Below are positions 2,570 to 35,292 of a DNA stretch of 52,427 nucleotides, piece after piece; position 1 is the stretch's first letter; the number at the start of each line of letters is the position of its first letter. The notes under the pieces are model-generated. The model did no database searches. It was given only the letters and a program-made list of their open reading frames with translations, and was not told the origin of the DNA. The DNA comes from Clostridia bacterium (GTDB lineage Bacteria; Bacillota; Clostridia; Oscillospirales; CAG-272): contig JAFSUT010000099.1 of NCBI GenBank assembly GCA_017445085.1, positions 1 to 52,427 of the forward strand, written 5' to 3'. The position numbers were made by a program, and so were the translations under genes.

Positions 2570-3062
2570 TGTTCTTTTTCTCCTTTTTGACCTCCAAGAT
2601 CAGCGAAATCGCAAGCAGTACGGCGCCGACGCAGACGCAGGCGTCCGCAAAATTGAACACCCAATGCCAGTACGGGATGCAGCGCACGTCCACAAAATCC
2701 ACAACGTAGCCGAGCAAAACGCGGTCAAACATATTGCCGAGCCCGCCGCCGATGATCACGGTCAGCGCCGCCTTTTGCAAGGGCGGCTGTTTTTTCTGCA
2801 CGACGAGATAGACAAAAAAGCCGAGGAGTGCCGCCGCCGACACCGCCATAAAGATCCAGCGGTTGTCTTTCAGCAGTCCAAACGACATTCCCGAATTTTG
2901 TACATAGGTAAAATGCAATACCCCGTCGATCACGGGGAAACTCATCCCCGCCGCCGCCGCTGCCGCGGGCAGACCGTTTTCCGCCGCGATCTTCCAGAGA
3001 GAAGCGTATTTCGTTCCCTGATCTACAAGGCAAATGAGCAAGATCCAAAAAATATATTCCAT
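2559..3062 (-). CDS. lspA: lipoprotein signal peptidase II
   Basis: 167 aa with four TM segments. Contains GGGLGNMFDR and FNFAD motifs characteristic of LspA. Classic lspA-rluD pairing. Confidence 0.9.
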   Translation of the reverse strand: MEYIFWILLICLVDQGTKYASLWKIAAENGLPAAAAAAGMSFPVIDGVLHFTYVQNSGMSFGLLKDNRWIFMAVSAAALLGFFVYLVVQKKQPPLQKAALTVIIGGGLGNMFDRVLLGYVVDFVDVRCIPYWHWVFNFADACVCVGAVLLAISLILEVKKEKKNSAG

Positions 3063-3079
3063 CGCAGATAAATCCTCTT

Positions 3080-4135
3080 TTACTCGGCAAACTCGGTCGG
3101 GTCGTGCTTTGGCGCCTTGCCCGACTGCATGATCTTTTCAACATCGGCAAAGCCGTTGTCCTCCCCGGCGTACGTGACGTTCAGATTGCCGTACGGTTTC
3201 ACGGGGGATTCGCCTTTTGCAAATTCATCCCCGACGATACGACCGCCGGCAAAACTGTAGTCCTGCACCGCGGGCGATCCTGCGGCGGCGACCGCAGGAG
3301 CCTGCGCCGCCGCCGACGCGTTTTGCGCCCCGTGCGCCGTGCGCATGGCGCGGCGCTCGATACGGCCGGCGCCGGATCTTTCCTCGGGCATCGGCACGTC
3401 AAGCGCCTGTGCGACCGGGGCGTCCTCCCCGCCGGCGGCTTTTCGCGCTGCCGGCGCCGCGGGTGCGATCTGCTCCGCGGGCGCCGGACGCGCGGCAAGC
3501 ACCGCTTCAAGGTGCGGTTTTGTGCGATCGTTGAGCGCGGCAAGTTCTCCGCGCAGTTTTTCGGTGATCTCCGCCACGGACGCCGTGTATCCGCGCCCCG
3601 CCGCCACGATCTCGGCATAGCGGTCGGTTTCCGCCGCCGTTTTTGCTTTTGCCTCGGCAAGCATCGCCTGCCCGCGGCGGTCGGCCTCCGAAAGGATCCG
3701 CGCCGCGCCCGCCTCCGCTTCGGCGATTTTTTCCTTTGCCGCGACGTCGGCGTCGGCGATCATCCCCTCCGCCTGTACCTGTGCGGCGTGCAGGCGATTT
3801 TGCGCCTTGCTCTCGGCGCTGCGGCGCAGTTCCTCCGTCTCGATCTGCGCGGCGTGTTCACACGCCCGTGCCGCCGCCTGCGCCTCCGAAAGCAGTTTTT
3901 TTGCCTTGCTCTCGGCAAGCGACAGCAGTTCATCCGCCGCCGCTTTTTCCTGCGTTATCTTCTCTTTTTCGGCGTCGTACAGCGCCGCGCGCGCCGTAAG
4001 CGCGTCCAGCCGTTCTTCGATCTGCAACAACTCGCCGGCAAGCGCCTGCAAAAACGCGTCCACCTCTTTTGTATTATATCCCGCAACCCCGCGGGAAAAC
4101 CTCACGTCCGAAAGCTTGTCCGATAGCCGCATCAT
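3080..4135 (-). CDS. divIVA: DivIVA-domain cell-division protein with long Ala/Glu-rich coiled coil
   Basis: The N-terminus (DVRFSRGVAGYNTKEVDAFL) is the DivIVA lipid-binding domain. The rest is coiled-coil/low complexity. Confidence 0.85.
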   Translation of the reverse strand: MMRLSDKLSDVRFSRGVAGYNTKEVDAFLQALAGELLQIEERLDALTARAALYDAEKEKITQEKAAADELLSLAESKAKKLLSEAQAAARACEHAAQIETEELRRSAESKAQNRLHAAQVQAEGMIADADVAAKEKIAEAEAGAARILSEADRRGQAMLAEAKAKTAAETDRYAEIVAAGRGYTASVAEITEKLRGELAALNDRTKPHLEAVLAARPAPAEQIAPAAPAARKAAGGEDAPVAQALDVPMPEERSGAGRIERRAMRTAHGAQNASAAAQAPAVAAAGSPAVQDYSFAGGRIVGDEFAKGESPVKPYGNLNVTYAGEDNGFADVEKIMQSGKAPKHDPTEFAE

Positions 4136-4156
4136 CCTGTCCTCCGAAAAATCTGT

Positions 4157-4969
4157 TTATTCATACCGTTTGGCAAGCAGGCGGAGCCTGCCCTTTTTGG
4201 TCTTGTCCGAAAGTTCTGCAATTTCAAATTTCCCCACACCGTGCAGGGTGAGGATATCCCCGGCGGCGACCGGCGCGTCCGGCGCCGACTGCGCCTCGTA
4301 ATTGAGTTCTACAGCCCCCCGCAAAATCTCCTCTTTGGCGCGCTCGCGTGAAAGATTGCCGAGCGCCGCCGCCACAGCGTCCAGCCGCGGTGAAGCCACC
4401 GTGTCGCTCACCGGAGAAAACCGCTGTACGATGCAAAACGACTGCGGCAGCGTCGCCCGCGTGATGCGCACTTTGTCCGAGGCGATGCGCACGTTTTCGC
4501 CGCACAAAAAGTCCGCCACGGCGGCGTCGGCAAAGACGACGGCGGCGCACTCCCTCGTCGGGACGATGTCGCCGAGCGACGCCCGCGAAATCCCGAGGGA
4601 GAGCAAACTGCCGAGATAATCCCGATGCGTAAACGTGCGAAAACCGCCGCCGGTGATGCAGAGCGGGACGATGGAAGAAAACGCCTCGTCCCCGAGATAG
4701 AGTTTTGCCGCGTCAAACAGTCCGCCGTCCTCGCAAAGATCGCAGACGTAAAGCGGCAGGACAAAGAGTTTTTGTCGCGCGGCGCCCGGTGCGCCGCCGT
4801 AAAACAGCGTACGGTGAAACGCCCCCTGCCGCCGCAGCTCTTGCGAGAGAAAATACTGCTCCTTAGGATTCAGGAACGCGGTACTCAGCGCCTCTGCCGC
4901 CGGACGATCCAAAAGATCCCGCACGTGGGCGAAAAGCAACTTGAATTCATCGCTGTCAAGGTAGTGCAT
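4157..4969 (-). CDS. ylmH: YlmH-like RNA-binding (S4 domain) protein
   Basis: 270 aa with a C-terminal S4-like segment (GDILTLHGVGKFEI). Sits between sepF and divIVA as in the ylm cluster. Confidence 0.75.
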   Translation of the reverse strand: MHYLDSDEFKLLFAHVRDLLDRPAAEALSTAFLNPKEQYFLSQELRRQGAFHRTLFYGGAPGAARQKLFVLPLYVCDLCEDGGLFDAAKLYLGDEAFSSIVPLCITGGGFRTFTHRDYLGSLLSLGISRASLGDIVPTRECAAVVFADAAVADFLCGENVRIASDKVRITRATLPQSFCIVQRFSPVSDTVASPRLDAVAAALGNLSRERAKEEILRGAVELNYEAQSAPDAPVAAGDILTLHGVGKFEIAELSDKTKKGRLRLLAKRYE

Positions 4970-5071: not shown

Positions 5072-5542
5072 TTATTCTGCGTCCTGTGCGGGTGCCGCGG
5101 CAGCCACTTTTTGCTTGATCTGCCCATCGCTGACGTCGACGTTGGAAGGCGTAACGACATACGCGCTGTTGGCAACCTTTTTGATGCTGCCGCCGATGGA
5201 ATATGCCACGCCCGTGAGGAAGTCCAAAATGCGGCGTGCCGCTTCTTTATTGGTGTCCTCCAAATTCAAAACCACGGTACGCTTTTGGAGCAGATGGTCT
5301 GCCACTTGTGCGGAATCCGCAAAATCAAGCGGTTTTACCACTTTCAGTTCGATGGCGCCGCCGCCGCCCATGATGTCGTAACCTGCGCCGCCGATGGTTG
5401 CCGCATTGTCCTGTGCGGGGGCCTCGGGCTGTTCGCCGTCATCCCAGCCTGCGCCATTGTCGCCGTCGTCCTCGTACATATACCCGTTTTGGTCATACGA
5501 GTCCTTGTTGAATTTTTCTCTGATTCCTTCAAAAAAGCTCAT
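5072..5542 (-). CDS. sepF: cell division protein SepF
   Basis: Conserved SepF core (VVKPLDFADSAQVADHLLQKRTVVLNLEDT...AYVVTPSNVDV). I place the start at the second Met (MSFFEGIREKF, ATG 5540-5542), which has GGAGGAA 6 nt upstream. The ORF-track start at 5566 overlaps that RBS. Confidence 0.9.
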   Translation of the reverse strand: MSFFEGIREKFNKDSYDQNGYMYEDDGDNGAGWDDGEQPEAPAQDNAATIGGAGYDIMGGGGAIELKVVKPLDFADSAQVADHLLQKRTVVLNLEDTNKEAARRILDFLTGVAYSIGGSIKKVANSAYVVTPSNVDVSDGQIKQKVAAAAPAQDAE

Positions 5543-5700
5543 TTTCCGTTCCTCCGAAAAAGTCAAAATCTATATTTATTTTATTTTAATTTTTATCCGT
5601 AAAAAGCGGTACTCTTCTTCAACATATACTACTTTATAATACAGTATAGCATATGTTTTTCAAAAAGAAAAGATATTTTTTGAACTTTTTATAAAAAATA

Positions 5701-6423
5701 TCAAATTTCCTGCGTTTTTTCGGCGGATCCCGCTTTGGCAAACGCCGCGCGCCCGATGCGCACGCAGGTAGAGCCCTCGGCGATCGCGGGGACAAAACTG
5801 CCGCTCATCCCCATCGAGAGGATCGGTTCGTCTGTGGGGAACGCCCCCTGTGCCCGCAGGCGCTCAAACAGAGCGCGGCATTCGGCAAAATACGGGCGGT
5901 ACGCCGCGTCGCTGTCACAGCGCGGCGCCATACTCATCAGTCCGCACAAGCGAAGATGTGAAAACGAAGAAAGCGATGTGATAAATTCCTCCGCCGCCTC
6001 CGGAAAGATCCCGCCTTTGGCTTTCTCTTTTCCGATATTGATCTCCACAAGGCAATCCATCCGCAGACCGCGCCGCGCCGCCTGCTTTTCGATCTCCTGT
6101 GCCAGCGACAGGCTGTCCAGCGACGCGATCATCTCGACTTTATCTATGATCTGCCGCACCTTGTTGCGCTGCAAACTGCCGATAAACCAGAGGTGCAGAC
6201 CGTCGCGGTCGAGCGCGTCGTACTTTTCCAAGAGGCTCTGCACCCGGTTTTCCCCGATATAGGTGTAGCCGAGCGACTTTGCAAAGTTGATTTCCGGAGC
6301 GGCGGCGTATTTTGTCGCCAGCAGTACCCGCACGGGATGAGAAAAAGAGGTCTGCTTTTGCGCCGCCGCGACCTTTGCGGAAATTTCGGCAAGATTTTCT
6401 CTGATATATTCAAAGTTTTCCAT
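5701..6423 (-). CDS. yggS: YggS/YlmE-family PLP homeostasis protein
   Basis: The internal start MENFEYIRENL... (ATG 6421-6423) gives 240 aa with the alanine-racemase-N fold pattern (LLATKY, HLWFIGSLQRNK, MGMSGSF). The Arg-rich upstream 64 aa of the track ORF overlap the neighbouring gene. Confidence 0.9.
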   Translation of the reverse strand: MENFEYIRENLAEISAKVAAAQKQTSFSHPVRVLLATKYAAAPEINFAKSLGYTYIGENRVQSLLEKYDALDRDGLHLWFIGSLQRNKVRQIIDKVEMIASLDSLSLAQEIEKQAARRGLRMDCLVEINIGKEKAKGGIFPEAAEEFITSLSSFSHLRLCGLMSMAPRCDSDAAYRPYFAECRALFERLRAQGAFPTDEPILSMGMSGSFVPAIAEGSTCVRIGRAAFAKAGSAEKTQEI

Positions 6424-6434
6424 AGATCTACTCT

Positions 6435-7706
6435 CTACTTCAGAATTTTGTCGGGTGAAAGATCGACCGCGCCGGCGATGACCACGTTGTCGTAGCGGGA
6501 GAGCCCCTTGCAAAAGAGGTCGTTTTCCTCGTCCGCGTCGCCCGCAAACAGGGTCTTTCCCTCGGTGTCCGTACCGAGCCAGGCGTAGCCGTCGTCCTCG
6601 TACAAAATATCGCAAACGCGATATTCAATGGTGCTCCCGCGCCGCACGTACACGCCGGTCGCGCCGTCCAGGATCCTCAGCGCCGACGTCGGCACTTTAT
6701 AACCGGTCACCTGCGATACGGTAACGCTGACCCTGCGTGTGCGCAGGGTAAAAAACTCGTTTTGCATCAACCGTGTGCCGAAGACGAGCAAGACTTCCCC
6801 GTCCTCTCTGTTTTTGGCGTACAGCTGCATCGGTATACTCTTGTCGCCAAAGGCGACGTCATATCTCTGCCCGACCTCAAGGGCGGTGGCGTCGTCAAAC
6901 TTGCAGACGCCGGCAAAGTACCACAGCGGATCCATCACAAGTTTGCAAACGGCGTCACCGGCGTCCGCCCGCCGCTCCATCGCCGCGCGGTACGCCGACG
7001 GTGTAAGCGACGGTACGGCGGCAAAATCCACGGCGTTTTCATAACCGTCCGCCGTGTGATAAAGGTATCCCGCCACCGGCGCGACGACCGTGGTGCTGTC
7101 CCCCGCAAGTTTTGCCGTGAGCGCCGTGCGCTCGGCATTCAGCGCGCGCATCAGATCTTCTACGCCGCGCTCACCGCCGAGGATCACGTCGCGGCGGAGC
7201 ATGGCGGAGAGCAGAGATCCCTCCCGTGCGCCGAGTTTGCCGATCTGCCCGCGCGCCCGCGCGTCCGAGATCATGAGCAGTTCGTTTTTCACCGTTTCTC
7301 TCGCCGAAACGCCGTAGGAAATGCGCGAGGTCTCGCTGATATCGGCGGCGGCAAGCAAATCAAGCGTTGCGTCGATCTGCACAAGGCGCGGGATGCTTGT
7401 CTGATCGGCGGCGCGATACAGCGACGCTACCTTTTCATGGAGCGAAACCCTCGTCCCGTCCGCAAACGCGTAGCCGACCGTGGCGCTCCCCGCGCCGTAG
7501 ACGACCGTTTCTTCACGAAAAATACTGCCGACCAGCGGGAGCGTCAGCGAGACGGTGTCCTCCGTCGCCGGCATGGTTTGTATCTGCGCGGAAAAACCAC
7601 CGGTCAGGTGATAGAGAATATAGCCGATGAGCGCCATCACCAACAGCAATTTGAAAAAACTGCCGAAAACGCGGCGGATCTTCGTTTGTTGCTTTCCGGA
7701 TTCCAT
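6435..7706 (-). CDS. single-pass membrane protein, HlyD/membrane-fusion-like (function uncertain)
   Basis: Start taken at MESGKQQTKIRR (ATG 7704-7706), which avoids overlap with miaA. One N-terminal TM helix followed by a beta-rich ectodomain. The family call rests only on general resemblance. Confidence 0.55.
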   Translation of the reverse strand: MESGKQQTKIRRVFGSFFKLLLVMALIGYILYHLTGGFSAQIQTMPATEDTVSLTLPLVGSIFREETVVYGAGSATVGYAFADGTRVSLHEKVASLYRAADQTSIPRLVQIDATLDLLAAADISETSRISYGVSARETVKNELLMISDARARGQIGKLGAREGSLLSAMLRRDVILGGERGVEDLMRALNAERTALTAKLAGDSTTVVAPVAGYLYHTADGYENAVDFAAVPSLTPSAYRAAMERRADAGDAVCKLVMDPLWYFAGVCKFDDATALEVGQRYDVAFGDKSIPMQLYAKNREDGEVLLVFGTRLMQNEFFTLRTRRVSVTVSQVTGYKVPTSALRILDGATGVYVRRGSTIEYRVCDILYEDDGYAWLGTDTEGKTLFAGDADEENDLFCKGLSRYDNVVIAGAVDLSPDKILK

Positions 7707-7729
7707 GGCGGTTTTCCTTTCTGTCAAAA

Positions 7730-8710
7730 TCAGTGCGCGGCAGACTGCCATACGGCAAGCGCCGCCGCGACGAGGTCTTCTTTTTGCAAAAGTCGCCCGT
7801 TTTCATCATCACAATAGAGCGGACGGGCGTAGGGACGCGCCGCAAACCAGGTCTCCTGCCGTTTGGCGTAATGCCGCGTCGCAAGTTTCAGGTTTTCCAC
7901 GGCGTCCGCCACGGTCTGCCTGCCGTCAAGGACGGGCAAAAGTTCTTTGTAGCCGATGGCCGCCGCCGCAGTCGAGTTTTGGGAAAACACGCCGTCGGCG
8001 GCAAGCCGCCGTACCTCGTTAAGCAGGCCCGCCGCCATCATCTCGTCCACCCGCCGGTCAATGCGGTCGTTTAGGGTATCCCGCCGATGGTAGCATAGGC
8101 GGATGCAGCAAAGATCCAGCGTCGGCGGACGGCGCCGGCTCTCCCTGTCCCACACGCTTTTCGGCTTGCCACTGCACAGATAGATCTCCAGCGCGCGCAA
8201 AACGCGGCGGGTATTGTTTTCGTGGATGGCGTCGGCACTTTCGGGGTCTACCGCGCGCAATCGCGCGTGCAGGGCGGACGCGCCGTACGTTGCCAAATCG
8301 TTTTCCAGCTGCGCGTGCAGCACGGGATCGGATGCAAGGGCGGCGGGCGCCTCGCCGCGGAGCAACGCGTCAAGATACAGTCCCGTACCGCCGCAAAGGA
8401 TCGGCAGACGTCCGCGCGCCGTCACCTCCCGCGCCGCCGCAAGGGCGAGCGGGATGTACTCCGCCACGGAGAAAGAGGTCCTCGGGTCGCAGATATCGAT
8501 CAGATGATGCGCCACGGCGGCGCGCTCCGCCGCGCTCGGTTTTGCGGTGCCGATATCCATACCGCGGTACACCTGCATGGAGTCCACCGAGAGGATCTCG
8601 CCGCCAAGGTGCGCCGCAAGCGCAAGAGCAAGTGCGCTTTTGCCGCTTGCCGTAGCGCCGACGACCGCCAACGCGCGGATCGGCTGATGCTCTGCCGCAG
8701 AAGTTTTCAT
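7730..8710 (-). CDS. miaA: tRNA dimethylallyltransferase
   Basis: P-loop GATASGKSALALALA, then SVDSMQVYRGMDIGTAKP and HHLIDI motifs. Start taken at MKTSAAEH (ATG 8708-8710), downstream of the preceding gene's stop. Confidence 0.9.
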   Translation of the reverse strand: MKTSAAEHQPIRALAVVGATASGKSALALALAAHLGGEILSVDSMQVYRGMDIGTAKPSAAERAAVAHHLIDICDPRTSFSVAEYIPLALAAAREVTARGRLPILCGGTGLYLDALLRGEAPAALASDPVLHAQLENDLATYGASALHARLRAVDPESADAIHENNTRRVLRALEIYLCSGKPKSVWDRESRRRPPTLDLCCIRLCYHRRDTLNDRIDRRVDEMMAAGLLNEVRRLAADGVFSQNSTAAAAIGYKELLPVLDGRQTVADAVENLKLATRHYAKRQETWFAARPYARPLYCDDENGRLLQKEDLVAAALAVWQSAAH

Positions 8711-10260: not shown

Positions 10261-10737
10261 ATGCGATTTCGGCCGTACGAGATCTTTGCCAAGTTTATGA
10301 GCCTCGGCAAATCCATGCGCTTTCACTGTCACCGCGCCGTGATGGAAGACGGCTTTTCGCTCAACGAGACCGACGTGCTGCTTTCGCTTTCGGCAGCGCC
10401 CGAAAACAACACCGTCAAAGCCATCAGCGAGGCGGCGGGCATCTCCAAAGGCAATATTTCCACCGCGGTGGAGACTCTGCGCAAAAAAGGCTATGTCTCG
10501 GTCAACGTGGACGCGGCGGATCGCCGCCTGCTCACCGTGGAACTGACCGAAAAAGCGGCGCCCGTCCTTGAAAAACTTGCCGCCGCAGAGGAGGAATACT
10601 TCTCCGGCTTTATGCGGTCGATCGACCGCGACCATATTTCTCTGGTCAACCGCGTATTCTCTTCTATCCAGCAGTTTTCACCGGCGGCGTTTTTGAAAAA
10701 ACTCTCAGGAAAGGACAACGACAATGAGAAAAACTGA
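10261..10737 (+). CDS. MarR-family transcriptional regulator
   Basis: Winged-helix pattern (ETDVLLSLS...NTVKAISEAAGISKGNISTAVETLRKKGYV...DRR). The start is uncertain: ATG 10261 or the TTG at 10231, which overlaps a GGGAGG. Confidence 0.8.
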   Translation: MRFRPYEIFAKFMSLGKSMRFHCHRAVMEDGFSLNETDVLLSLSAAPENNTVKAISEAAGISKGNISTAVETLRKKGYVSVNVDAADRRLLTVELTEKAAPVLEKLAAAEEEYFSGFMRSIDRDHISLVNRVFSSIQQFSPAAFLKKLSGKDNDNEKN

Positions 10738-31629: not shown

Positions 31630-32856
31630 TCAGTTCAAAGCGTCGATCGAGCTCTGTGCGTGTGCGACGTAAATCGCCTGGATATCACCGAGTCTGCCGA
31701 GGCCTTCGATTTGCGCCTCGACCTTGTCAAATTTTCCGGAAGCGCCGAACATACTCAGCCAGGAATCTTCCTCTTCCCCTGCCATATCGTTGTTGGCGTG
31801 GTCGCCGGCAACCACCATGAGGGGGCGGAGAACGACGTTTTTGTAGCCTGCGGCAGCGACGGCGTCGATCACGGCGTCACACGCGGTTTCTTCGGGTTCG
31901 CCCTCGACCGTGCCGATAAAGACGTTCTTGTAGCCGAGTTCGTTCATCTGCGTCTGCATCTGCGAATAGGTGATCTTTGCGTTGTGCGAGGTGCCGTGTC
32001 CCATAAAGACAAAAGCGGTGCCTGCCGCCTCGGCGGCGTCAAGGCTGTCAAAGCCTGCCTCCTTCACAGCGGCGGCGGTGATGGCTTTGGCGGTCGCCTC
32101 TTTGTCCGCGTTTACGTTGGACGCGGCGGCGCCGACTTTGCCGAGCAGCGGCTCGCTGATGACGATGGTGGCGATCTTGTCGGCGTAAGCGTCGGCAGTC
32201 GCTTTGAGTTCGTCATATTCGGCGCCGTGCATCAGGTGGGTCGGCTGGATGACCAGCGTTTCCACGCCGTTTGCCACGGCGCGTTCCATTGCCTGTTCCA
32301 TATTGTCGATTTTTTCGCCGTCACGCGCCTGAATATGGTTGATGATGATCTGCGCGGTGAAAGCGCGTCTGACCGACCAGTCGGGAAACGCCTGTGCCAG
32401 CGCGTCCTCTACGCCTTTGATATCCTTTGCGCGGCTGTCGTTAAACGACGTGCCGAAGCTGACGACCAGCAGTTCTTTCTTGCCGATCTCGTCGCCGTTT
32501 CTCGGATCGTCAAGCGCGGCGTCGCCGGTATCTCTGCCAAAGTAATCGGGGTCGGCGTTCTCCCCCTCGACAAGTTCTTTCTGTGCGTCGGTGAGGTTGT
32601 CCCACGCCGCTTTTGCCGCGGCGCAGTCCTCGTCGGTCGTATCGGTGCGCGTCTGGACGTAGATGGCGTCGATCAGTGCGGCGACCTCGTCGGCGAGTTC
32701 CTCATCGGTCGGCGCGGCAGCCTCGGTCGTGACAACCGCGGCGTCGGTCGTTTCAGGTGCGGCCTCGGTTTCCTGCGGCTTCTGCCCGCAGGCGCAAAGC
32801 CCGCAAAGCATCCCCGCGGCAAGCGCGAGCGAACAGATTTTTTGAGTGATTTTCAT
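31630..32856 (-). CDS. cbiK: CbiK-type sirohydrochlorin cobaltochelatase homologue carrying a lipoprotein signal peptide and low-complexity linker
   Basis: Start MKITQKICSLALAAGMLCGLCACGQ (ATG 32854-32856, GGAGGAAG upstream). CbiK motifs LVVSFGTS, THLMHGAEY, MGHGTSH and VAGDHANNDMAG are present. The track ORF's first 31 aa were rejected. Confidence 0.85.
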   Translation of the reverse strand: MKITQKICSLALAAGMLCGLCACGQKPQETEAAPETTDAAVVTTEAAAPTDEELADEVAALIDAIYVQTRTDTTDEDCAAAKAAWDNLTDAQKELVEGENADPDYFGRDTGDAALDDPRNGDEIGKKELLVVSFGTSFNDSRAKDIKGVEDALAQAFPDWSVRRAFTAQIIINHIQARDGEKIDNMEQAMERAVANGVETLVIQPTHLMHGAEYDELKATADAYADKIATIVISEPLLGKVGAAASNVNADKEATAKAITAAAVKEAGFDSLDAAEAAGTAFVFMGHGTSHNAKITYSQMQTQMNELGYKNVFIGTVEGEPEETACDAVIDAVAAAGYKNVVLRPLMVVAGDHANNDMAGEEEDSWLSMFGASGKFDKVEAQIEGLGRLGDIQAIYVAHAQSSIDALN

Positions 32857-32894
32857 AATTCTTCCTCCTGTAACTCCCTCTTTTGGGAAAATAA

Positions 32895-33115
32895 TGAAAA
32901 AATAAAGAGCGCAAAAGCGGCGCGGGGAGCCCCGCGCGTCTGTTTGCACTCTTCACACCAAAGAAATGAAACACAAATACGGCAATATCTGACTGATGGA
33001 CGACCAAAGGCGCAAAAACGCGCGACAAAAAACGGCGCAATCCGCCCACGGCAACGTCCAAATACAGGAATGGTGGTTGTTTCGGATTTGAACCGAATTC
33101 TTTTTAATCTACTCA
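32895..33115 (-). promoter_or_regulatory. candidate cobalamin riboswitch (divergent) plus terminator-like expression platform
   Basis: 300-nt leader containing, in canonical order: AAAAAGAAUUCGGUUCAAAUCCGAA (a hairpin resembling the GGGAA-GGUG-AAAUCC core); GGACGUUGCCGUGGGCGG; and a B12-box-like AGUCAGAUAUUGCCG (32980-32994). These are followed by the GC hairpin GCGCGGG-GCTC-CCCGCGC (32920-32937) and a U-rich tract. Confidence 0.5.
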
Positions 33116-33162
33116 GTCTACAACTTTTCAAACCGTATTTGATGCGATTTATTTTTGACAAT

Positions 33163-33191
33163 ATTATACTCTCTTTCCGGCACGATTGCAA
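33163..33191 (-). promoter_or_regulatory. consensus sigma-70-type promoter of the cobalamin operon
   Basis: Minus strand reads TTGCAA (33186-33191), 17 nt, TATAAT (33163-33168). Confidence 0.6.
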
Positions 33192-33472
33192 TAGCAAAAA
33201 GCGAAAAAAGTCGCCGCCGCCCCGCGGTTCTTTTTGACCGCCGCCAAAAGTTCGGGGTGGTTGACCCTGTCGGAATAGCCGGGCGCGGGGATCCCCTGCC
33301 GCACGGCGCCGCCCGCGGCGTACGCTTGCGGCTGATACGGCTGCTGCACCGGCTGCTGCACGGGTTGCTGATACGCAGGCTGTTGCGGCTACGCCGCGGG
33401 CGCGCCGCACGAAGGGCAGAATTTTGTCCCCTCGGAAAGCTGTGCCCCGCAATTCGGGCAAAAGTTTGCCAT
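33164..33472 (-). pseudogene. zinc-ribbon protein gene interrupted by an in-frame TAG and apparently 3'-truncated
   Basis: Manual translation from ATG 33470-33472 gives MANFCPNCGAQLSEGTKFCPSCGAPAA-TAG(33389-33391)-PQQPAYQQPVQQPVQQPYQPQAY...RVNHPELLAAVKKNRGAAATFFAFCYCNRAGKRV. The part after the TAG is the 33164..33361 track ORF in the same frame. Confidence 0.6.
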
Positions 33473-33516
33473 TGGAACAGTTCTCCTTTGTTGTCATTTT
33501 TGTCTATGTTATGACC

Positions 33517-33545
33517 ATTATAACAAATCCTCGCCCCGCCGTCAA
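33517..33545 (-). promoter_or_regulatory. sigma-70-type promoter of the zinc-ribbon gene
   Basis: Minus strand reads TTGACG, 17 nt, TATAAT. An AGGAG RBS precedes the ATG. Confidence 0.55.
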
Positions 33546-33572
33546 TATCCAAAAACACGCCGTCGGCGCACA

Positions 33573-33624
33573 AAAAAAAGACCGCTTTTGCGGTCTTTTT
33601 TGTTTTCGATCAATCGCTGACGTA
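33573..33624. repeat. left copy of the 52-bp direct repeat (orphan rpsR 3' end plus terminator hairpin)
   Basis: AAAAAAAGACCGC-TTTT-GCGGTCTTTTTTGTTTTCGATCAATCGCTGACGTA. Matches 34453-34504 at 48/52 positions; only the 4-nt hairpin loop differs. It also acts as terminator for the 130-aa gene. Confidence 0.9.
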
Positions 33625-33655
33625 TTGTAATTCTATATCGGAAATACTAAATATT

Positions 33656-34048
33656 TTAATAATTTGTTAAACTACCGCTGGTTGTTTTAATGGTAACGGT
33701 TTGCCTTTTATACGAAGGATTTTTTGCGTAGACTTGAACATAAAAAGTTCTGCACCTATAACCATATTGAGAATAAGTATATTCTTTCCCCGGTTGAATC
33801 TCTTTCGTCCAACAACCATTGATATACATCCACATCGGAACGCTGCCTTTGTTCATAACCGTGATTTTGTTTGTGCGCAAACTGCTAAAAGTTGCCTTCC
33901 TTTTTGCCAACAGGTCCGAAGCACTTCTTGCAGTAGCAGTTGTTGTATAAACCGCAGCAGCTGCTGGCAATGAAGCAATAGCAAACAACGTTGATAAAAT
34001 CAACATAATTGCTAATATTTTTACAATCATACTTTTTCTATTTATCAT
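33656..34048 (-). CDS. small secreted protein of unknown function (signal peptide, 2 Cys, beta-rich)
   Basis: 130 aa. GGAGGA RBS, signal peptide ...LFAIASLPAAAAV, and a consensus promoter TTGACA-17-TATAAT (34090-34118, minus strand). Confidence 0.7.
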   Translation of the reverse strand: MINRKSMIVKILAIMLILSTLFAIASLPAAAAVYTTTATARSASDLLAKRKATFSSLRTNKITVMNKGSVPMWMYINGCWTKEIQPGKEYTYSQYGYRCRTFYVQVYAKNPSYKRQTVTIKTTSGSLTNY

Positions 34049-34059
34049 TTTTCCTCCAA

Positions 34060-34111
34060 ATTATAATTCCGATATAGAATTACAATAATATTATAATTCC
34101 GTATCAGAATT
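34060..34111. promoter_or_regulatory. two 22-bp operator-like direct repeats in the divergent promoter region
   Basis: ATTATAATTCCGATATAGAATT (34060-34081) and ATTATAATTCCGTATCAGAATT (34090-34111). Each contains AATTC-N7-GAATT dyad symmetry. The second fills the -35/-10 spacer of the minus-strand promoter. Confidence 0.5.
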
Positions 34112-34165
34112 TTGTCAATGGATTTTAATAATATAATGAAAAAAAATATGCTATATGTGGTGAAA

Positions 34166-34432
34166 ATGAAAACAAGAAAAATCGCTTATGGAAACTGTAA
34201 TATTGTTGGCAAAAACATCGAAGCGCTCCGAAAACGGAAAGGCATAAAGCAAAAAGACCTTATTGCAAAAATGCAAATTATGGGCGTTGATATAAATCCG
34301 ACAAGTTATTCAAAATTAGAAGGACAAGTACGGTTGGCGACGGATAAAGAAATATACGCGATTGCCAAGATTTTAAGTGTTTCTGTAGAATCCTTGTTTT
34401 GCATAGACAACGATGAGCAAAAGAACCCTTAA
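34166..34432 (+). CDS. XRE-family helix-turn-helix transcriptional regulator
   Basis: HTH pattern IVGKNIEALRKRKGIKQKDLIAKMQIMGVDINPTSYSKLEGQ. Start ambiguous (ATG 34166, 34148 or 34118; the track starts at TTG 34112). Confidence 0.8.
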   Translation: MKTRKIAYGNCNIVGKNIEALRKRKGIKQKDLIAKMQIMGVDINPTSYSKLEGQVRLATDKEIYAIAKILSVSVESLFCIDNDEQKNP

Positions 34433-34452
34433 TAGCACCGATATTTTACAAC

Positions 34453-34504
34453 AAAAAAAGACCGCAAAAGCGGTCTTTTTTGTTTTCGATCAATCGCTGA
34501 CGTA
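34453..34504. repeat. right copy of the 52-bp direct repeat (authentic rpsR 3' end plus bidirectional terminator)
   Basis: Contains the rpsR stop (34490-34492) with the last four codons, and the GACCGC-AAAA-GCGGTC hairpin. Confidence 0.9.
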
Positions 34505-34792
34505 AGGGATCAGTGCCATCTGTCTTGCGCGTTTGATGGCAACCGTGAGCTGACGCTGGTGAACGGCGCAGGTGCCCGAAATTCTTCTGGGAAGAATTTT
34601 GGAGCGCTCGCTGACAAGTTTTTTCAGTCTTACGGTATCCTTATAGTCAATGTAGTCAATCTTGTCTGCGCAGAAAATGCAAACCTTTTTGCGCTTCTTC
34701 ATCGGACGGAAGGGGCGCTGTGCAGGTGCCGCTTCACTCGTCGCTGCTGCTTCGGGTGCTGCGGGCGCAGTTACAACTTCATTGTTTTCCAT
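34490..34792 (-). CDS. rpsR: 30S ribosomal protein S18
   Basis: Conserved [18 protein letters not shown]...[32 protein letters not shown]. Start either ATG 34792 or TTG 34804. Confidence 0.9.
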
Positions 34793-34839
34793 GAGCTTAA
34801 CCAACCTGTAAAGTACAGATAATCCTTTCTGAAAAATTG

Positions 34840-35292
34840 TTAGAACGGGAGATCCTCATCGGCGGAAACAGATTCAAACTTCGGTGCGCCGCTCTCCGCA
34901 TTGGAGAAGGACGGCGAAGTATACGCATCCGGCGTATACTGTCCCGCATTTGCGGCGTCGCCCTTGCTTTCCACAAAGCCGACCTCATCCGCAACAACTT
35001 CGGTAACGTAGCGTTTATTGCCCTGACTGTCGTTGTAACTTCTCGATTGAAGTGCACCGCAAACCAAGATCGGTTTTCCGCGCTTGAAATAGCGGGATAC
35101 AAACTCAGCCGTCTGTCTCCATGCAACGATGTTGATAAAATCCGCCGTCTGCTGTCCTTCGGCCGCGTTTTTGCTGTATCTGCGGTTGATGGCAATTGAA
35201 AACGAGCAAACGGAAATGCCGCTCGGCGTCGTTTTCAGTTCAGGGTCGGCAGTCATATTGCCGATCAAAATTACCTTATTGAGACTTGCCAT
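34840..35292 (-). CDS. ssb: single-stranded DNA-binding protein
   Basis: [22 protein letters not shown]-fold N-terminus and an acidic DEDLPF tail. Confidence 0.95.

Follow-up and report, generated by a model that had tools for sequence, protein, structure and literature searches.

We describe a short AT-rich cassette inserted beside rpsR, the gene of ribosomal protein S18, in contig JAFSUT010000099.1 (assembly GCA_017445085.1; the window, in what follows, is this whole stretch of 52,427 nt). Its host is an uncultured Clostridia bacterium, Eubacteriales/Oscillospiraceae-like, from ruminant gut samples, and the strains to which we compared it are metagenomic. The cassette (33625..34450, GC 0.335) is missing from strains of the same species. 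Since these have one copy of the repeat that flanks it and no island, it is a true insertion polymorphism, with the 3' end of rpsR regenerated. It carries two divergent genes, one for an XRE-family regulator and one for a secreted protein of 130 aa. Our preferred reading, which we hold with slightly less than even confidence, is that of a non-autonomous, horizontally acquired two-gene cassette that entered one strain lineage beside the rpsR terminator, where about 54 bp of target sequence were duplicated.

The insert lies between direct repeats of 52 nt (33573-33624 and 34453-34504) that are identical at 48 of the 52 positions. The sole mismatches are the four bases in the loop of a hairpin, TTTT in the left copy and AAAA in the right one (plus strand), which are exact reverse complements. 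An inversion of the island between the palindromic hairpins was considered as the cause of this loop flip and rejected by reasoning, because the 23-nt tails beside both hairpins are in direct orientation. If an indel of 1 nt in a run of A (8 vs 7) is tolerated, the repeat grows to 33570..33624 and 34451..34504 (55 and 54 nt). A 45-mer spanning the repeat has exactly two copies in the window (0 of 100 shuffles) and, coding leucine-rich repeats aside, the pair is the only one of its kind in the 52 kb. Each copy consists of the final 15 nt of rpsR (TACGTCAGCGATTGA, minus strand) and of a hairpin scored as terminator-like, at 33574-33601 on the left and 34454-34481 on the right. The intact target gene (34490..34792, minus strand; Pfam Ribosomal_S18, 1e-24), which is the last of rpsF-ssb-rpsR, is contiguous with the right copy, and the left one is an orphan with a displaced copy of those 15 nt of rpsR. 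An earlier note on this DNA had described the 52-mers as differing in loop bases only and as made of the rpsR end and its bidirectional terminator, with the right copy completing the gene. The sequence comparison, the terminator-like scores of both copies and the Pfam match and contiguity of rpsR agree with it. So does the base composition, for which it had set an AT-rich segment against GC-rich flanks: GC is 0.335 in the 828 bp between the repeats (33625-34452), vs 0.575 in the window and 0.53-0.57 in the 5-kb flanks. The positions fit an arrangement in which both rpsR and the XRE gene would end at the rpsR-proximal copy, and the 130-aa gene at the orphan one. Given such terminator use, neither neighbouring operon would be disturbed.

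An exact look-up of the RpsR protein gave four contigs. Two of these (L018 and L019) are from the same strain as each other, carry the island and are 99.97% identical. The other two (L020 and L021) have flanks that are 98-99% identical, one hairpin copy that runs straight into the left-flank sequence, and no island; the neighbouring zinc-ribbon gene is also absent from them. Contigs of run X5 show the empty site with both neighbours, i.e., the zinc-ribbon flank, one repeat copy and rpsR, and runs X3, X6, X7 and X8 contain further empty alleles. The empty sites that the earlier note had proposed to seek in relatives thus exist in two contigs and five runs. In all of them the loop reads TTTT or GTTT on the plus strand, like that of the orphan copy. 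The island-bearing strain is represented by three concordant assemblies, one of them made with k = 141, which exceeds the repeat length. Independent run contigs cross both island junctions, and the junctions of the right copy were seen in independent assemblies as well as in run contigs. The island is present in only four public runs, all at low word shares; X1, X2 and X14 are among the runs that contain it. One of the empty alleles, on a contig of X7 that covers 34459-34640 of the window, has the palindrome of the rpsR terminator lengthened by 7 nt on each side (CGAAAAC...GTTTTCG), a type of change produced by quasi-palindrome template switching.

A version of the island that has diverged by 4-12% was found in run X4 (bovine gut), in contigs matching 33705-34480 of the window. 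Its right end carries the same AAAA hairpin. As the assembly graph joins it to an rpsR 3' end that is itself about 10% diverged, this suggests that the cassette is also at rpsR in a second species, or that it was exchanged between species.

The earlier note had also advised a search for other copies. While the window has one copy of the cassette, homologous cassettes were found at six other, unrelated chromosomal sites, so that seven genomic contexts could be read (the window, L002, L135, L137, L138, L219 and L221). In all seven, the secreted-protein gene is divergently paired with a small regulator, and each pair stands alone between differing housekeeping genes: pfkB/thiF in L002, an ABC transporter and PBP5 in L135, a phosphotransferase system in L137, a hydrolase in L138 and AraC in L219, plus the context of L221. 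The window and L002 have XRE-type regulators that are 79% identical, L137 has a distant HTH_3 protein, and the remaining four have a ribbon-helix-helix protein. In all five loci that were profiled, the pair exceeds its flanks in AT content. Nucleotide homology between the cassettes of the window and of L002 ends at 33631, 6 nt from the repeat.

Host-derived direct repeats bound three of the seven cassettes: 52 nt in the window (54/55), 56 nt in L135 (56/56) and 52-53 nt in L221. The repeat of L135 consists of the last 27 nt of the ABC-transporter gene and its terminator hairpin, and that of L221 (88% identity) of part of a terminator hairpin and 21 nt downstream. The three repeats are unrelated in sequence, each of them includes the local intrinsic terminator, and the flanking-repeat scores of these loci (74-112) compare with a shuffle mean of about 18-20. 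The junctions in L135 are borne out by an independent unitig (L136), and a relative of its host, at 87% nucleotide identity, has one terminator and no cassette. The window and L135 also share the same order: host gene, repeat, antisense regulator, sense secreted gene, repeat. In the corresponding search for an empty site of L002, the relatives found of the PfkB neighbour were all at 50% identity or less. For the origin of the island, the earlier note had offered two readings. That of a remnant of a larger island is unlikely, because it is hard to reconcile with homologous two-gene cassettes that occupy unrelated sites, two of them with their own repeats of 52-56 nt. A non-autonomous element mobilised in trans is the better of the two.

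We found no recombinase in the island or in the 30 large open reading frames (ORFs) of the window scanned against Pfam, in keeping with the recombinase-less element that had been described. Those ORFs belong to housekeeping families, among which are a cluster for cobalamin biosynthesis, ABC transporters and a GH31 enzyme. Among 80 related genomes, the region downstream of rpsR had no integrase-bearing element, no island and no such repeat, with the exception of L040. In this sheep-colon Clostridia metagenome-assembled genome a second copy of the 33-nt rpsR terminator hairpin follows 166 bp downstream of the first (10294-10492), and a tRNA-like 3' fragment (GGTTCGAATC T-loop motif) lies between the copies. 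There is no integrase within 4 kb of the L135 cassette, and the L221 contig is only 2.9 kb long. Taking the repeat as an att site, its 45-mer had no exact match in GTDB representative genomes and a 35-mer had none in JGI metagenome contigs.

Other types of element were considered and rejected. The imperfect inverted termini reported by the earlier note, TTGTAATTCTATATCGG and TTGTAAAATATCGG, are present in the sequence as written. As transposon ends they do not hold: they score 14 in the window vs 12.8 +/- 2.1 in shuffled sequences, 31% of which are at least as good, and the left one resembles an XRE operator and pairs with the 5' leader of the secreted-protein gene. Miniature inverted-repeat transposable elements (MITEs) and non-autonomous insertion sequences (ISs) have target duplications of a family-specific 2-15 bp, and those seen here are of 52-56 nt. 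A group II intron (including the terminator-targeting class IIC) or another known RNA element was discarded after an Rfam scan of 32800-35000 (E <= 1) that returned no intron family, and so was a tRNA or tmRNA as the insertion target. We also rejected an integron gene cassette: a consensus promoter and a regulator are part of the element itself, the hairpin at its flank is that of the rpsR terminator, and there is no intI among the large ORFs scanned.

In the preferred reading, of a two-gene cassette inserted with duplication of its target, the repeat would have been made at insertion, by a pair of strand breaks or template switches spaced by about five helical turns, with subsequent fill-in. 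This would be the work of machinery encoded elsewhere, or of host replication and repair, and would not depend on shared attP/attB identity. Insertions beside a terminator would survive because the duplication insulates both neighbours. We favour a target duplication over the att sites of a decayed integrase element because two of the six other cassettes have their own terminator-containing repeats of 52-56 nt, although with three repeat cases only the mechanism is favoured rather than proven. Several observations weigh against it. The other four of the seven cassettes have flanking repeats at background level, none being detectable, and the offset of the hairpin differs within each of the three repeats. 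End-to-end alignment finds terminal inverted repeats at shuffle level in all three repeat-bearing cassettes, and no termini are shared between cassettes, which leaves no conserved ends for a transposase. We know of no prokaryotic transposition system that makes fixed target duplications of about 55 bp. A second insertion site is not known for this particular cassette. Finally, the AAAA loop is confined to the rpsR-proximal copy of island-bearing DNA and is also present beside the X4 variant, which would be consistent with a hairpin moving along with the element in the manner of an att site. The bolder claim of a new non-autonomous mobile unit, with terminator-side insertion, a fixed duplication of about 55 bp, termination of both genes, machinery outside the cassette and no described type of transposase or integrase, is one that we regard as possible but rather unlikely. 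We see the finding as a variant of the theme of small genomic islets and cis-mobilizable elements (CIMEs), with a real if minor chance that the insertion mechanism is an undescribed one.

The repeats might instead be attL and attR of a tyrosine-recombinase element at the 3' end of rpsR, i.e., an integrative and conjugative element (ICE), an integrative and mobilizable element (IME) or a prophage, of which the cassette would be a decay remnant or a passenger mobilised in cis or trans. We consider this a serious alternative, with a probability well short of even. The repeat spans the 3' end of a ribosomal-protein gene that is regenerated, as is usual for IMEs, and the definition of CIMEs covers a recombinase-less element with retained att sites (PMC5704250). 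The island has these features: 52-nt repeats that regenerate the gene, with the right copy completing rpsR, and no integration or transfer genes inside. The one-copy empty site is in line with this, and so are the loops, since an orphan loop like that of the empty sites and a different gene-proximal one would result from unlike attP and attB sites and a crossover on the rpsR side of the loop; the AAAA hairpin adjoining the diverged island of X4 adds to it. However, the integrase is absent from both the island and the scanned ORFs, and the 80 related rpsR loci have no such element or repeat, save for the 33-nt terminator duplication of L040. In other words, of the site-specific integration claimed by the earlier note, insertion with regeneration of the target is supported by the empty sites, and integrase-type integration is not shown at these loci. 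The cargo was also not found in phage, plasmid or viral collections. Moreover, the homologous cassettes at two other sites have unrelated repeats of similar length, that of L135 without a nearby integrase. On this reading, different islands would hence have to have decayed in parallel until the same two genes were left, or several integrases, each with a target of its own, would be needed.

Enzymes may not be needed at all, if one-off illegitimate events at a replication-blocking hairpin were followed by spread through homologous recombination of the flanks within the species. Such events could be template switching (fork stalling and template switching, FoSTeS, or microhomology-mediated break-induced replication, MMBIR) or the capture of foreign DNA at a staggered break followed by fill-in. 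The hairpin is clearly prone to template-switch mutation in the population, judging from the inverted loop, the GTTT/TTTT polymorphism and the extended palindrome of X7. The zinc-ribbon gene was deleted in other strains, apparently between short GC-rich repeats, four of the seven cassettes lack repeats, and neither element ends nor a recombinase were found. Yet three independent events with nearly equal duplications (52-56 nt) and the same orientation of the cassette to the host gene are unexpected for random repair, microhomology at the junctions is not clear beyond a possible 2 nt, and the recurrence of a rare cassette family at many sites suggests that something promotes its movement. We regard this explanation as improbable. 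An old local duplication of the terminator without mobility, or an assembly artefact, has hardly any probability left. Artefactual repeats can arise at lengths close to the k-mer size of an assembler, and the assembly behind L135 is of the SPAdes style. But the three assemblies are concordant, including the one with k above the repeat length, the GC content is 33% in the insert and 57% in the genome, and this reading is effectively refuted by the empty sites of same-species strains together with the junction-spanning contigs of independent runs.

Among known systems, phage morons and the minimal mobile elements of Neisseria are small units of foreign composition with their own promoter, bracketed by terminators and placed between conserved genes without mobility genes. 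The cassette is like them in being small, compositionally foreign, self-contained and terminator-bracketed. Morons are found within prophages, and minimal mobile elements rely on flanking homology for their movement and do not duplicate a target, whereas the cassette is in the core chromosome and its target is duplicated. Integron cassettes are sub-kilobase and recombinase-less, with a hairpin-forming site of about 60 nt that is moved by an enzyme acting in trans. The element described here is likewise sub-kilobase, recombinase-less and associated with a hairpin, but the hairpin is a host terminator with coding sequence and not an attC site, there is no array and no intI, and no core sites (RYYYAAC or GTTRRRY) were seen by eye. 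Streptococcal CIMEs and IMEs integrate in the 3' end of rplL, rpmE, rpmG and rpsI (PMC5704250). Like CIMEs, the cassette is strain-variable and without integration or transfer genes (PMC5704250). Unlike CIMEs and IMEs, it is far smaller (0.83 kb), its homologues are at unrelated targets with repeats of similar length, and a parental integrase-bearing element is not known for the rpsR site, a gene that PMC5704250 does not mention. With MITEs and with IS1549 and IS1634 it shares host-derived direct repeats around an insert without transposase. Long duplications have precedent in these two ISs, whose direct repeats are long but variable, from 8 to 514 bp (PMC2266710), whereas those of the cassettes look fixed at 52-56 nt. 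The absence of significant terminal inverted repeats and of an identified transposase relative, together with the two-gene cargo, also sets it apart from MITEs and ISs.

If insertion makes a duplication of about 55 bp, this would be a route by which a ready-regulated gene can be added beside an essential operon that stays undisturbed. Such a route would need neither a mobility gene nor recognisable ends in the cassette and, if true, would bear on the origin and spread of the small "orphan" islets that abound in genomes and are as a rule written off as remnants of islands. If the element is a CIME instead, the outcome is an ordinary one, and rpsR joins the ribosomal-protein genes that are used as integration targets.

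The divergent pair is the only gene content of the insert, as the earlier note had stated, with one revision to the start of the regulator. The gene of the 130-aa protein (33656..34048, minus strand) encodes a signal peptide, whose end (FAA) is conserved in the family, and a beta-sandwich; the AlphaFold2 model is all-beta with nine strands (pLDDT 84). A more specific fold was rejected, because the structural matches are generic jelly-roll or beta-sandwich ones and weak (TM < 0.5). The protein matched no family of Pfam, NCBIfam or PADLOC (defence systems), an exact-protein look-up gave no record, and there was no match in genome contigs, JGI metagenomes, viral contigs, plasmids or phages. A word search among 5.8 billion proteins found one homologue and a full profile search 16 representative clusters, whose members are too divergent for a locus-search profile. 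This defines a very rare family of secreted proteins in ruminant and other gut Clostridia. The XRE-family helix-turn-helix regulator is on the plus strand (34166..34432). Its start is better set at 34166, which gives a protein of 88 aa that exactly matches a called protein. It resembles HTH_3 and HTH_19 below the Pfam cut-off (HTH_3 at 4.8e-4) and has 3443 homologues, many of them about 80% identical and most with PF12844 or PF01381.

The 130-aa gene has a sigma-70-type promoter (34090..34118, minus strand; TTGACA, 17 nt, TATAAT) that matches the consensus at 12 of 12 positions. The divergent promoter region contains two palindromes of the form AATTC-N7-GAATT (34065-34081 and 34095-34111), 101 and 71 nt upstream of the XRE start. 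The promoter spacer contains one of them, and the 5' leader of the 130-aa gene the other. Across the 2.1 Mb of loci that were fetched, we counted 41 occurrences of the motif, each upstream of a homologue of this XRE, at positions -74 and -102 in 29 of the 34 hits that could be positioned. Because every occurrence is upstream of an XRE homologue and the spacing is mostly fixed, these sites are almost certainly the operators of this regulator, to judge from the sequences. The cassette thereby has the makings of an autoregulated XRE repressor module, with a helix-turn-helix protein and palindromic putative operators in its own promoter region. In it, the regulator, two conserved candidate operators and a consensus promoter form a closed regulatory unit, where the XRE protein would repress the promoter of the secreted protein through the AATTC-N7-GAATT sites. 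This makes it a testable unit, in an XRE family that has a fixed putative operator and more than 3000 members.

The 130-aa gene is also bracketed by an inverted repeat of 24 nt (96%). Its 5'-leader arm (34064..34087) overlaps the leader-proximal operator-like site, and its 3'-trailer arm (33623..33646), at a conserved cassette end, contains the left "terminus" discussed above (33625-33641) and a third operator-like site (33629-33645). The repeat is significant in the window (z = 11), and the predicted fold of the mRNA pairs both ends. In the closest relative, L002, the arrangement recurs with a sequence that has co-varied (2170-2185 / 2602-2617), and similar arms are found in L138 (591-606 / 1060-1075) and L221 (about 646-683 / 1148-1181). 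Overall, such a leader/trailer repeat occurs in 7/7 cassettes, with sequences that all differ; four of these repeats reach significance (z = 4.8 to 11), and the other three are weaker. Possible roles are those of an auxiliary operator, of an element that pairs the ends of the mRNA, or of an invertible gene switch.

The zinc-ribbon gene (33164..33472, minus strand), which neighbours the insertion on the side away from rpsR, lies outside the cassette. It has an in-frame TAG at 33389-33391, after 27 codons, which is common to two other assemblies of the strain; other strains read CAG, and still others miss the gene altogether (33217-33558), apparently through a deletion between short GC-rich repeats. 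A cobalamin riboswitch (32964-33152, minus strand; 34.2 bits, above the gathering score) lies upstream of CbiK and of the genes for cobalamin transport and biosynthesis that take up much of the window.

The closest homologues of the XRE protein (about 80% identical; L006-L011 and L125-L134, with the XRE gene at 3001-3246 or 4001-4246) usually have a YAcAr/SLOG-domain gene as divergent partner, with the same operator motifs. Near pheST, these XRE/YAcAr modules show flanking duplications and opposite orientations. The pair of L134 lies between direct repeats of at least 112 nt (about 85% identity) and is oriented opposite to that of L129 relative to DUF436/pheS. We did not count these duplications as evidence, because the region is full of repeats resembling repetitive extragenic palindromes. 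Arrays of a GTCTAAN heptamer are found in L006, L007 and L010, and in the first two they lie on both sides of a variable segment. In the argC/XRE/PHP context of L015, a prophage-like block with an integrase and an S24 repressor (5491-8225) replaces the glutamate dehydrogenase region of the sister contigs.

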